From assembly GCA_964342815.1 (NCBI GenBank), contig CAYFHS010000004.1, positions 104,333 through 168,332 of the forward strand: a stretch of 64,000 nucleotides of DNA. Reading direction: 5' to 3'. The translations under genes were made by a program, and so were the position numbers. The notes under the pieces are model-generated. The model was not told where the DNA came from, did not search any database, and saw only the letters and a program-made list of their open reading frames with translations. Each line of letters begins with the position of its first letter. Within the stretch, counting starts at the first letter, position 1. Positions 24,351 through 46,188 of this stretch are shown here, piece by piece. This DNA is from an uncultured archaeon (lineage in GTDB: Archaea > Thermoplasmatota > Penumbrarchaeia > JASLWR01).

Positions 24351-24536
24351 AGGAGTGAAGTTACAACGATTCAACTTAGGAAGGCGACTCGCGATGAACT
24401 CCGAGAATTCGGGATAAAAGGAGAATCCTATGTTGATGTTATCCACAAATTGATGGATGCCGGGAGAAAAATAGCATTTTTTGAAGATATTGACCGCATA
24501 CTTGAGACAGAGGAGTTTGTTCCACTTGACACGTAA
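24351..24536 (+). pseudogene. Archaeal RHH-like antitoxin upstream of relE; the expected start codon reads AGG
   Basis: Manual translation (AGG)SEVTTIQLRKATRDELREFGIKGESYVDVIHKLMDAGRKIAFFEDIDRILETEEFVPLDT*. GGTGGTG RBS precedes it; in-frame TAG at 24336 and no canonical start upstream of the conserved TTIQL motif. Confidence 0.7.
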
Positions 24537-24595
24537 AGACGGGAACAAAGTGACTGTCTTCTTGGTAAAGTTGAGCCAGAATGGGTCGGCTTTAC
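24533..24595 (+). repeat. Family A element, copy 1 (63 bp), GTAAAG...CTTTAC followed by NN-GTAAAG
   Basis: 38-bp block and 21-bp block identical to the reverse complement of 46062-46188. Confidence 0.85.
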
Positions 24596-24641
24596 GAGTA
24601 AAGACACACCTGATGCCATGTCTAACGTGACAAGTGGTGAC

Positions 24642-25013
24642 TTGTCAAGATATGAGGTTTTCCTTTCTGAAACTGCCAGACTGCAACTCAAACGTTTGCC
24701 TGCCGATTTACAGGAACGTATAAAAGTAGCGTTAGCCGAGTTGAATGATTCAACGGAATCGACCCTTTGGGATCACGATTCCGCGAACATTATCAAGCTG
24801 CAAACATCGACTTTTTGTCGAGGTTTGCACCATGGACAATATGATCCATATAGGCCGCGATCAAAAGCAGATATCAAGAAAATAAAAGGGCCAAAAAGAG
24901 ACTATTATCGACTAAGAATCGGAAATTTCAGAGCAATGTACGTAGTTGAAGGAAACAATGTTAAGGTGGCAAAAATATTAGCCCTAAGTACTGCTTATAA
25001 CTGGATTGATTGA
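24642..25013 (+). CDS. relE: RelE/ParE-family toxin carrying an in-frame insertion of about 31 codons
   Basis: SRYEVFLSETA...RIKVALAEL[insert]DPYRPRSKADIKKIKG...YYRLRIGNFRAMY. TTG start after GGTGA. Confidence 0.8.
   Translation: MSRYEVFLSETARLQLKRLPADLQERIKVALAELNDSTESTLWDHDSANIIKLQTSTFCRGLHHGQYDPYRPRSKADIKKIKGPKRDYYRLRIGNFRAMYVVEGNNVKVAKILALSTAYNWID
24750..24840 (+). mobile_element. Family C short copy (91 bp) inserted in frame in relE, flanked by AT
   Basis: Homologous to 17341-17490. Hairpins GGAATCG/CGATTCC and TGCAAAC-A-TCGAC-TTTTT-GTCGA-G-GTTTGCA. Confidence 0.75.
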
Positions 25014-44300: not shown

Positions 44301-46033
44301 TTGCAAATGAGTTTGTGACTGAATATAAAATATATTACAGCAGATTCTCTTTTAGCACAGTTGAAGACTATTCGAGCAATGAAATAATGCTTGTGGCAAC
44401 AGAAAACTCCAATTCTACCGAATATGTTCGCTTAGTCAAAAACCTAGTGGCAAATCAGAATTATTATTTTGCAGTAACACCGGTAAACCAACATGGTGAG
44501 AATCTTAGGGTTGCATCGGCGGTTGTTAAGCCAACGAAGCTCACAGAGGCCAAGGTTGATGCCAATTTTAATGGATCCTATACGGCAACTTGGAAAAAGT
44601 GTCCTGAGGAACTACGTCCTCGTTTCGATCATTATGCAATTTACGTCGCCACAGGTACCCCTGACGTGAATAACGATTCCCAGGTGGCAGTTAGAATATT
44701 TGATATATTGACTACTTCATACATAATAAGGGGTTTGAAACCCGATGAGAAGTATGAGATACTTATTCGGTACATGGGTAAGGATGGGGCGGAATTATAT
44801 AGGGAAACGGGCAGTATCAAAGTAGAGGGTGCCGTTGAGGAAACTGGGCTTCTTGGCTTTTTTATGGAATACTGGGAACTTGTAGGTGGTGCAATCACTA
44901 TCCTTGCTGCGCTGTTCGGTTTCTTTGCGTTCCAACGGAAAAAGAAAAAAGTGAAAGAATACAGAAAAGAGATAACCGATACCTATATGGCCAATCGGAA
45001 AGAGCCCGCGGTTTGCGTCAAGAAGTTGAAAGATATAAGACAGCGCCTCGAGGAGGAAGTTCACGAGGAAAGGATGACTGAAAATCAATATCTTATCATC
45101 AGGGAGAAATTGAAGGATTATATGGCGGAGATGAAGGAAAAGAACCGGAAGCTGAAGAAGAAGGAAATGAAAAGGAAGATGAAAGAGAAGCAGAAAGCCC
45201 TGGTCGTCGTCGAAAAGATGGAATTGGATGAGGAGAAAGAAAAGAAACCAAAAAAGCAAGCAGTGGTGGATTCCGGAAAAGACTATCATGCCGTATTGGG
45301 TGTTGCCAGCGATGCCACCGAGAAAGAGATCCGGGCTGCATTCAAGATGTTAGCGGAAAAATATCACCCCGACAAGGTTAGGCATTTGGGCAAGGAAATT
45401 ATCGACGTTGCCGCCAGGAACATGAGGGAGCTGAACGAGGCCAGGGACACGCTTCTGGAGAGATTGAAGGAAGGACCTGAACCGGGGGAGAAAGCTGGGG
45501 ATGACGAGGCAAAATTGTCCGCCAAAGAGGAAGCGGAGAGCCTTCCCGTAACGGAAATAATTGACGAGGATCGAATGCTGGGTCAGGGCGATGGAGCTGC
45601 TGAAAGTGAATCGCCGGATGAAGAAAAAGCGGATGAAGGGACGGAGAAGACCGAGGTAGGGGAGGAAGCCGGAGAAGAGGTTAAGGAACCTGCAGCAAGC
45701 GGGGAGACCTTAGAAGCTGAACCGGCCGAGCCGATTGCCGTTGATGCCGACGACCTTCCTGAAACTGATGATGGGGAGGATGGATCGGAATCGGATGATG
45801 AGCCTTCCCCGGCCTCAGATGATGAACCTGATGAAAAACCGATTGATACGGAGGATGCAACCACCACGGAAGAACCTGGTGAAGATGCTGATGAATTATT
45901 CGCATCCCTGGACGATGATCTTCCCCCTCCTGAGGACCATGGAACCGAAAGTTCAGAGGAAGATGCCAAGGATGACCTCGAAGACGACATTGACGAGCTT
46001 ATAAAGATGTCTGACGATGTGTTCGATGACTAA
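38393..46033 (+). CDS. Giant surface protein (2546 aa): right-handed beta-helix repeats, PKD/Ig/Fn3-like domains, TM helix, cytoplasmic J-domain and acidic tail
   Basis: Repeated SPY...LTIEPGVIVKF...IVFTS units; AGQDQTV...TYTFTLVV; several ITP..A Ig repeats; TM LVGGAITILAALFGFFAF followed by RKKKK; J-domain DYHAVLGV...YHPDKV...ELNEA. Confidence 0.88.
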   Translation: MEMDVKIGNNNHATAKRLTSLLTIWLFVSTGLLGLLLLADEDIVASAAGPTYITSNPYYAAPVTWSEANSPYVLNSSVTIKDGAKLTIEPGVIVKINGNHQIYVGSGSTHRANLWAVGTSTKRIVFTSYHDDTEGGDTNGNGGDTAPAKGQWSRIYFDYIDNINLNRIEHCNIKYANEGIRFEDGSVTVTQCNISYNNYGIRAYGTGVSPTISNCNITNNTNGIYLEFTSAGTSLQSNLIRDNNYGLVCSIVPTVNGNTIVNNSVWSGGESRFIPYNVCLKGDVYAGNTWYSSLSPYIVIGDVTIRDTYLVEIQAGTTLKFDRSDYELHIDGKLTAVGTPNSWITFTSNRANPAKGDWDKLNFNPINANYDDHNKLQYCRIEYASYGVYLYYSSPALIDHNEIENNTYGIRLEGNSNPQTVTYNNFTKNTYPVDCCAHIPALGTNNFTANTFNNVTIGGYAKVSCTWPESESPYIIRDSVYVMDNAKLTIEPGVIVKFDSYKRIQVGTGSTHRGDIWAEGTAGKRIVFTSNKDDSAGGDTNGDGGLTSPAKSNWEFIYYYYVSNNANNKWEYCDFKYSNYGLNFYEGEIAVSRCNFSYNTRGINAQRSASKPTISNCNISNNTYGIYLDGTSALTELNSNLISDNNYGLVCNIVPLVNGNTILNNSLWSGGEGRAVPYNVCLKGDVYADNTWYSSLSPYIVIATVNIRTPYRVTIQAGTALKFDHSSYQLKVDGKLTAVGTASKRITFTSNRQNPSKGDWNRIFFEPDDPGNYDPFNKLQYCRIEFASYGIFCTHSSPAVLDNNEIENNTYGIRLEGRSNPTITNSNITYNTYSVDCSAHIPSLVTDNISHNSYNNITVGGYIYDNVIWPESGSPYIVRDNIYIVDTNKLTIDPGVTIKFDSYKRIQVGTGSTHRGDLYAVGTKAKRIIFTSNRDDTEGGDTNNDGQATAPAKGNWEYIFFYYLQTVIFNKLEYCTIKYANYGVYLDDNDNGVTVSHCIIEENHRGIHLQSGAKGNVEYNEFHNNGYGMYFAGSRSGANVHNNDIYGNTNHGIYVQSPDNVSADNNYWGSANGPTHANNPGGNGDKSSNYVDYKPFANYYINNDPPVSKAGQDQTVVWGRNATLDGKGSYDQEECPNGDAAGNKLVYDWNVSANYPSNQIVLNNESSPTPHFTLVMNVSGTYTFTLVVRDPGGKWSSESTVNVHSSPPDVPTELWITQRDLVITADETSRFTAGANDSAGNRNYTWMREWEITDPDAQLAVSGQYNETAVFHPHKAGIWTIRCNYSGGVVNGGRTVTKQITVRFGEVKSIIIETFQNMVNVSADNENLRITATGYDLKGNVNNTWISTWSVNDTDARLGPDPNDPANGQKRVFIPGNVGQWMITCELKEFGFTIVTANIKLNVSHGVVDHIDVTPKDQITTAGSTIQYSAVVYDQKNNSIPSNPTWSTDDPKGNISSGLYGAGQNGTWNIVCTVDQISGSTSVTVNKGPLTGVEITTETATVHANETLQFSARGYDVKDNPILISFTWAVTDPEAQISQQSGLFTPKNVGTFKVFANYTDQKTRADWSAEATIRVLLGRVYSLEITTQDNLKAITVEQKLQLYAKAYDVKGNEYGAGDWTPTWQVDDPDGSVSSTGLFTPGPSSIGIWTITCTDTATNIFNTTSVGVNFGQLSNIVISPSGATVAADKTLQLTATGYDTMNNSQDITHEVAWYVPNGTIENGLFSPYAVGEYTIYANRSGRSGHVTVMVNYGKLVRIIITPDNPSVDVLDTEPLKLKGTGYDIKNNLIINNWNWSISKGTIDPTGAEVTYTPKAPGKWIAMCSYGSIRANITIDVTNTITISHNVTSTAATGGKVVISAVIVGYLDVMPTLYYKYHEEDIYQATSMFNPEGDNYLGDIPGLIDPGSIFYYIVASDGYNTAVTHPEKTPVERPNIIEVTESAVGAVPTPVQFWAWDFGIGDTVKIIWIPSLANEFVTEYKIYYSRFSFSTVEDYSSNEIMLVATENSNSTEYVRLVKNLVANQNYYFAVTPVNQHGENLRVASAVVKPTKLTEAKVDANFNGSYTATWKKCPEELRPRFDHYAIYVATGTPDVNNDSQVAVRIFDILTTSYIIRGLKPDEKYEILIRYMGKDGAELYRETGSIKVEGAVEETGLLGFFMEYWELVGGAITILAALFGFFAFQRKKKKVKEYRKEITDTYMANRKEPAVCVKKLKDIRQRLEEEVHEERMTENQYLIIREKLKDYMAEMKEKNRKLKKKEMKRKMKEKQKALVVVEKMELDEEKEKKPKKQAVVDSGKDYHAVLGVASDATEKEIRAAFKMLAEKYHPDKVRHLGKEIIDVAARNMRELNEARDTLLERLKEGPEPGEKAGDDEAKLSAKEEAESLPVTEIIDEDRMLGQGDGAAESESPDEEKADEGTEKTEVGEEAGEEVKEPAASGETLEAEPAEPIAVDADDLPETDDGEDGSESDDEPSPASDDEPDEKPIDTEDATTTEEPGEDADELFASLDDDLPPPEDHGTESSEEDAKDDLEDDIDELIKMSDDVFDD

Positions 46034-46061
46034 AAAAATGCTGCTGAACTGAGCTTTACGT

Positions 46062-46188
46062 GTAAAGCCGACCCATTCTGGCACATCTTACTTGAGAAGC
46101 CAAGATCTATGGGCTTGGCTGAACAAGTAATAGGGCCCGGTACGGGACACCTTTACCAAGAAGACAGTCACTTTGTTCCCGTCTTTAC
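46062..46188 (-). repeat. Family A element, copy 2 (127 bp), with an extra internal hairpin
   Basis: Same 38-bp and 21-bp blocks as 24533-24595. Middle contains TTACTTG..GCCAAG/CTTGGC..CAAGTAA. Confidence 0.85.

Follow-up and report, generated by a model that had tools for sequence, protein, structure and literature searches.

The stretch analysed here, called the window throughout, comprises 64,000 nt of the genome of an uncultured archaeon (positions 104333-168332 of contig C4; assembly G000, 4.35 Mb in 116 contigs, 88.9% complete). It carries, about 21.5 kb apart and in opposite orientation, two copies of a short hairpin-forming repeat that we term family A. Comparisons were made mainly with a second genome of the same genus (G001) and with a genome of another genus (G003; CAYRFL01, 'uncultured archaeon'). 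The features in question are as follows.

24533-24597, plus strand: family A copy 1, a single 65-nt short unit (nhmmer E 2.8e-21)
46054-46188, minus strand: family A copy 2, a 133-nt long form with flanking GTAAAG
24351-24536, plus strand: start-less DUF7557-like antitoxin frame (PF24434, E 1.4e-4, under the curated cut-off)
46185-46505, minus strand: open reading frame (ORF) of 106 aa with no Pfam match, ending ..VNSAHM*
24598-24650, plus strand: different small hairpin repeat abutting copy 1 (GTAAAGacacacctg...gacaagtggtgacttgtc), also present in G001 and G003
24618-25013, plus strand: RelE/ParE-like toxin gene downstream of copy 1 (PF05016, weak)
23071-25620, no strand assigned: toxin-antitoxin island, missing at the syntenic place in G001, with copy 1 inside it

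The initial annotation had described the two inverted copies as sharing a 38-bp and a 21-bp block around a middle of 4 or 68 bp, and the letters bear this out. The 38-bp block is exact at 24533-24570 (plus) and 46151-46188 (minus), and the 21-bp block at 24575-24595 (plus) and 46062-46082 (minus), while none of 100 shuffles gave any match for either block. Copy 1 has TTGA as its middle, whereas that of copy 2 is 68 nt long. Both copies also close, as annotated, in the palindrome CTTTAC-NN-GTAAAG, with GA (copy 1) or AC (copy 2) as NN. Copy 1 is composed of GTAAAG, hairpin 1 (AAGACGG/CTGTCTT), CTTG, GTAAAG, TTGA, the hairpin-2 arm GCCAGAATGGGTCGG, CTTTAC and GA; copy 2 continues from hairpin 1 into the 68-nt insert (46083-46150), which lengthens hairpin 2, and then into the 21-bp arm and CTTTAC-AC-GTAAAG. 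The upstream frame had further been read as stopping at the TAA within the first GTAAAG, and this holds for both copies: the antitoxin remnant ends ..EEFVPLDT* with its TAA (24534-24536) inside the first GTAAAG of copy 1, and the 106-aa ORF has its stop TAA (46187-46185) inside that of copy 2.

Members of a genome-wide repeat family

A profile of the 65-nt unit yielded 79 matches at 41 intergenic loci of the source genome, making family A a high-copy extragenic palindrome like those of the REP/REPIN-RAYT systems. Fifteen of the 41 loci lie at contig ends, where the copies break the assembly. The general unit reads GTAAAG, hairpin 1, CTTCTTG, GTAAAG, 4 nt, hairpin-2 arm, CTTTAC and AC, and on the strand that ends in TTAC its layout is GT-GTAAAG-[hairpin 2]-CTTTAC-CAAGAAG-[hairpin 1]-CTTTAC. 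Three forms occur, namely the lone unit, the head-to-tail array of two to four units with a period of 65 (for example C3:22871-23134 and C17:65371-65570), and the unit with cargo placed after the second GTAAAG. Copy 2 counts among nine near-identical long forms of 133 nt. Its 68-nt insert is found in nine copies at 97% identity or more; eight fall within family A loci, while a partial ninth on C60 was scored as lying elsewhere. Another cargo, 173 nt long, is made up of small hairpin repeats of other kinds, which are found on their own as well, and other repeat families adjoin family A via the same junction, as the one at 24598-24650 does right after copy 1. The palindrome CTTYAC-NN-GTRAAG is present 42 times in the genome against 1.4 expected, with 39 of the 42 at family A loci. 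The window copies are ordinary members of this family and form no special pair. Some 40 hairpin-rich intergenic oddities of the genome have this one cause and can be masked as one repeat family.

Beyond the source genome, family A was found in G003, with at least 21 matches and with ~350-nt long forms in which the same ends enclose structured cargo. Searches of G001, G002 and another 37 relatives did not find it. A scan of a genome contig collection returned G003 only, plus single chance matches in bacteria, and exact-pattern scans of two metagenome sets and one viral set returned no family A.

Whether copies always follow small accessory genes, a check suggested by the initial annotation, can be answered in the negative. 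The loci are all intergenic but occupy gaps of every kind (convergent, divergent and tandem), run in either orientation and neighbour genes of ~100 to 3100 aa. Equal numbers of array edges (27 each) face the 3' and the 5' end of a gene; the stop is within 30 nt for 12 of the 27 that face 3' ends, as opposed to 1 of the 27 that face 5' ends. Stops of predicted genes coincide with 3 of the 189 hexamers at family A loci, and the start-less ORF at copy 1 would be a fourth.

These data bear directly on the attC-like behaviour that had been ascribed to the two copies, according to which they would mark the 3' ends of gene cassettes, as in an integron, or bound an invertible or excisable 21.5-kb segment. 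Both window copies do begin on a stop codon, and hairpin 2 has conserved ends around a centre that varies from 27 to about 240 nt, so family A resembles attC sites in its imperfect palindrome, conserved ends, variable centre and possible overlap with stop codons. However, the cores are CTTTAC/GTAAAG and do not fit RYYYAAC ... GTTRRRY, the third base of the R'-like hexamer being A and not T. The units of an array enclose no genes, all orientations and gap types occur, and only the 3 hexamers counted above are stops of predicted genes. Family A bounds no cassettes: the arrangement of one site 3' of each co-oriented single-gene cassette, beside intI and attI, was not observed, neither IntI nor attI lies nearby, and contigs with family A carry no tyrosine recombinase. 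The attC reading is unsupported and is contradicted by the data, and we regard it as hardly credible.

Insertion sites and stop codons

Three comparisons of filled with empty sites showed precise insertion of family A. At C18:26692 the filled site and its empty paralogue on C69 differ by exactly 65 nt, inserted after ..cctgtca and before ggacaag.. with nothing duplicated. The three-unit array of 195 nt on C17 is absent from the orthologous site of G001, and the 8 nt TACGTGTA present there once are found twice in G000, at both junctions. The 127-nt form at C3:68496 is likewise absent from G001; it was inserted 4 nt past a stop codon and extends from GTAAAG to ..CTTTACAC to within one base, again with no duplication. 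Insertion without target duplication, a mark of the PATEs discussed below, is common to all three comparisons, and the presence of a 6-bp inverted repeat without target-site duplication sets family A apart from classical MITEs moved by a DDE transposase. At further loci on C16, C6, C1, C5 and C32 the intergenic DNA is replaced or diverged in G001 and gave no clean empty site; those on C11 and C24 have no G001 orthologue for comparison.

The flanks of the copies are biased in sequence, with logos of CTTywC-An on the left and ACG-wAAAg on the right and per-position p values of 1e-3 to 1e-12. Read on the complement strand, the sequence flanking the GT-GTAAAG end on its 5' side is cTTtaC (T18, t13, a14, C21 of 23), a degenerate motif. 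Family A thus inserts precisely, without target duplication, at sites resembling its own CTTTAC-NN-GTAAAG junction. Because the targets mimic this junction and each copy recreates a target, head-to-tail arrays result, and the same preference leads to nesting beside other hairpin repeats.

The initial annotation had proposed a recombination site with a GTAAAG core for an unknown recombinase. What stands of this proposal is that GTAAAG/CTTTAC is where DNA breaks and joins, as seen from the three empty sites and from the 42 junctions against 1.4 expected; the recombinase fared less well. If the 14-bp CTTTAC-NN-GTAAAG were the crossover site of a dedicated double-strand recombinase (tyrosine, serine or otherwise) that integrates 65-nt circles or their multiples into pseudo-sites, one would understand why targets mimic the junction on both sides, why junction and target at C17 are identical over 8 nt, why the site is a palindrome of two 6-bp half-sites and why arrays run head to tail. 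Yet the central dinucleotide is variable at the left junction and fixed at the right, tyrosine recombinases need a spacer longer than 2 bp, the C18 products misfit an exchange at a shared 2-bp core, and the C3 target bears little likeness to the junction. The candidate enzymes of the source genome also lie elsewhere: its four tyrosine recombinases are encoded only on C7, C26, C82 and C91 and its two resolvases on a plasmid-like 3-kb contig (a Hin-like invertase) and on C40, all without family A. Its sole IS110 gene is the only coding content of C110 (1579 bp, 63% GC against about 46% for the genome), a contig that is probably bin contamination. We consider this explanation quite unlikely. Crossover by a serine recombinase at the central dinucleotide, taken separately, was ruled out by the C18 junction sequences.

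As to the stop codons, the 106-aa gene shares its terminal codon with the orthologue in G001 (..ATG TAA ATA..), and the gene at the C17 array ends ..GCC TAC GTG TAG in G001 versus ..GCC TAC GTG TAA-AGC.. in G000, with the old TAG now 195 nt further downstream. Since both orthologues terminate at the same codon, the stops are ancestral and not provided by the element. The target itself offers a simple account of the overlap. TTAC is the reverse complement of G-TAA, so insertion beside TTAC lands just before G-TAA on the other strand, and the leading GTAA of the element then restores the same stop in the same frame. Both window copies display such a restored stop, the flank after CTTTAC-NN being again GTAAAG. 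The family provides a clean natural example of how a TTAC-targeting element can dock on G-TAA stops with the protein unchanged. Docking is not always silent, and the C-terminus can occasionally be rewritten: at C5:92055-92190 (L086:856-991) a two-unit array has entered a ThiL/AIR-synthase-like gene four codons short of its stop, and the tail IGLE* of G001 gives way to 19 element-encoded residues (RVKPSHSGTSLPRSQSKCS*).

Hairpins and the mobilising enzyme

On the GTAAAG strand the short unit folds into two hairpins with an RNA folding energy of -26.4 kcal/mol (z -5.6; complement z -1.3), and the long form, with hairpin 2 extended, reaches -48.2 kcal/mol (z -3.6). Across 44 distinct units from G000 and G003, 86% of the cells pair. 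Compensatory changes were seen at four pairs: 7-25 is A-T or T-A (16/26), 42-54 is A-T or T-A (19/15), 9-23 is A-T, G-C or G-T, and 38-58 is G-C or T-A. These two-sided changes mostly divide two subfamilies and hence amount to few independent events. The hairpins are kept by compensatory changes, though by few events.

Such a fold might also be expected of a functional structured RNA or DNA motif, for instance a 3'-untranslated-region stabiliser, a terminator or a protein-binding site, recruited by the host and spread by duplication rather than by transposition. The much better fold of the GTAAAG strand than of its complement, the covariation in the stems and the 12 of 27 gene-3'-end flanks within 30 nt of the stop would all be consistent with it. 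However, the orientation to the neighbouring gene is inconsistent, copies occupy divergent promoter gaps too, the unit has no T-run, and the covariation lies mainly between the two subfamilies. Rfam covariance models gave no match for the window or the G003 long forms. Insertions that are exact and present or absent between congeners likewise argue against such a motif, and we consider it very unlikely.

Taken together, both window copies are probably insertions of a small, non-coding, non-autonomous mobile element, for which we infer single-strand HUH transposition in trans. For this mechanistic step we regard the case as evenly balanced. An IS200-type HUH Y1 transposase would act in trans by single-strand 'peel and paste', and the TTAC at which DNA is cleaved or entered would be read by a guide, the AAAG located 5' of each hairpin foot. 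In the insertion sequence (IS) IS608, a guide AAAG located 5' of the hairpin foot reads TTAC at the cleavage and target sites (PMC3201880). In family A, too, each hairpin is preceded on its 5' side by AAAG, the element ends in TTAC, and TTAC-like flanks are preferred; this layout, which follows the IS608 rule, favours single-strand HUH transposition and is directly testable in biochemistry. Family A would share with the IS608/IS200/IS605 group the TTAC site and the AAAG guide 5' of the hairpin foot, and it shares the lack of target duplication; excision and insertion are exact in that group (PMC3201880), and insertion is exact here. Family A differs in that both of its ends would use TTAC and its second flank is also biased.

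Several observations weigh against this account. Neither a Y1 gene (PF01797) nor TnpB nor an IS remnant was found in the source assembly, which is 88.9% complete. An IS200-type element of 756 bp with a 163-aa Y1 transposase does exist in the relatives, at L061:1254-2009 in G003 (transposase gene at L061:1465-1956) and at L062 in G001, 82% identical across the two genera; TTTAC stands directly before the start of the inter-genome homology and again at its end. The hairpins of this element (CCAGTG..CACTGG and CCAGC..GCTGG), though, have no sequence in common with family A, TTTAC alone being shared, and G001 carries the element yet has no family A. The IS608 model accounts for one flank only and leaves the GwrAAG-like preference on the other unexplained, and the cleavage site lies only a few nt from the hairpin, much closer than the 19 and 10 nt of IS608. 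The C18/C69 boundaries (T-GTAAAG..CTTTAC-G) are offset from the common form. At three loci G001 has, between perfectly conserved flanks, unrelated sequence of similar length and no clean empty site; at one of them the replacement is a small dispersed hairpin repeat. Neither an excised circle nor polymorphism within the population was observed.

Around the Y1 gene of G003, no family A unit lies within 1.5 kb. In the source genome a weak tblastn Y1 match at C5:22471 was rejected as spurious, being antisense to a real gene.

A bolder version of the proposed transposition would make family A a replicator that targets itself and has no 'gene' other than its DNA fold: a 65-nt circle bearing guide (AAAG) and site (TTAC). 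The enzyme moving it would be either an unrecognised host or HUH-like protein that current profiles cannot detect, or a recombinase of a new class with the 14-bp CTTTAC-NN-GTAAAG palindrome as its recognition site. We hold this to be unlikely. If true, family A would be the first system of the REP/BIME type to be described from archaea, with silent landing on G-TAA stops as its specialisation. REPINs have been stated to be undetected in archaea (10.1101/2021.07.10.451892), and archaea carry only IS200-type Y1 enzymes (PMC6006769).

Among known elements, the closest analogues are the haloarchaeal PATEs and SMRs and also the bacterial REP/BIMEs. Like family A, the PATEs of Haloquadratum walsbyi (PMC3119063) are gene-less, have hairpins near their ends, leave no target duplication and live in an archaeal host; they too have short terminal-only forms (52 bp there) beside longer cargo forms, and they are mobile even with no intact IS200 transposase present. 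They differ in that the ends of family A share only the TTTAC pentamer with the IS200-type element of its relatives, there being no IS in G000 itself. Family A moreover has a 6-bp terminal inverted repeat and head-to-tail arrays, four genomes of its group contain no TnpB element, and its host is not a haloarchaeon. SMR-A of Haloquadratum (PMC3119063), likened here by description, is 80-110 bp long with inverted termini and no duplication, strongly prefers palindromes of other mobile elements and has an unknown mobilising enzyme; family A, by contrast, is directed chiefly at its own junction sequence and at gene ends rather than at IS605 palindromes. The REP/BIME/REPIN repeats with their RAYT (PMC3733652, PMC3116915, PMC3479197) are likewise short hairpins outside genes that carry a conserved terminal tag (GTAG, as against GTAAAG in family A), occur in mosaic clusters mostly at gene 3' ends and have a proposed HUH enzyme. 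Family A has no single-copy RAYT flanked by repeats, carries another tag and clusters head to tail rather than in inverted pairs. With family A, REP/PATE-like elements extend to an uncultured archaeon.

The 21.5-kb interval and neighbouring repeats

The initial annotation had suggested looking for inversion of the segment at 24.6-46.1 kb. Contig C67 of G001 matches the window at 21400-23070, 25621-25762, 44837-46029, 46184-46552 and 47152-47200, in the same order and orientation, so there is no inversion of the 21.5 kb relative to that genome, in which family A was not found. The interval encodes the toxin-antitoxin island, a Wzm/Wzt-type ABC transporter, LarC-like, UbiA and PIG-L proteins and two giant proteins, one of them a giant surface protein, and no recombinase gene was found in it. 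A collinear, uninverted segment with such housekeeping genes speaks against both the inversion and, once more, the attC reading. That two copies stand inverted at a distance of 21.5 kb is a coincidence, and no function of the arrangement has been demonstrated. The repeat is real, but neither a new integron-like system nor an invertible segment of 21.5 kb exists here, and the finding matters mostly as a correction of the attC reading.

The toxin-antitoxin island directly follows pyrG and consists of MNT-HEPN, the start-less DUF7557-like antitoxin with RelE, and two small ORFs; at its boundaries (23071 and 25620) neither a family A copy nor any other obvious repeat was found. At the other end of the interval, G001 carries at C67:42070-43700 (L069/L067) a gene resembling glutamine synthetase that seems to contain an internal stop; it lies between a giant J-domain adhesin gene and the 106-aa gene, where G000 has only family A copy 2.

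Other small repeats were encountered beside family A. At the site of the unit at C1:148204, G001 (L106:2303-2390, C103) has a different two-hairpin repeat of ~85 nt between identical flanks; its first hairpin recurs four more times in G001 and once in G000. This position resembles a hot spot filled by different small elements, and such replacement between conserved flanks in G001 and G000 recalls the 'switch repeats' of Haloquadratum (PMC3119063). In the window, a third repeat family, a hairpin of ~95 nt, interrupts the RelE/ParE-like gene in frame at about 24748-24842. It is separate from family A and more widespread, with about 80 matches listed for G001 and G003 together at 73-91% identity.

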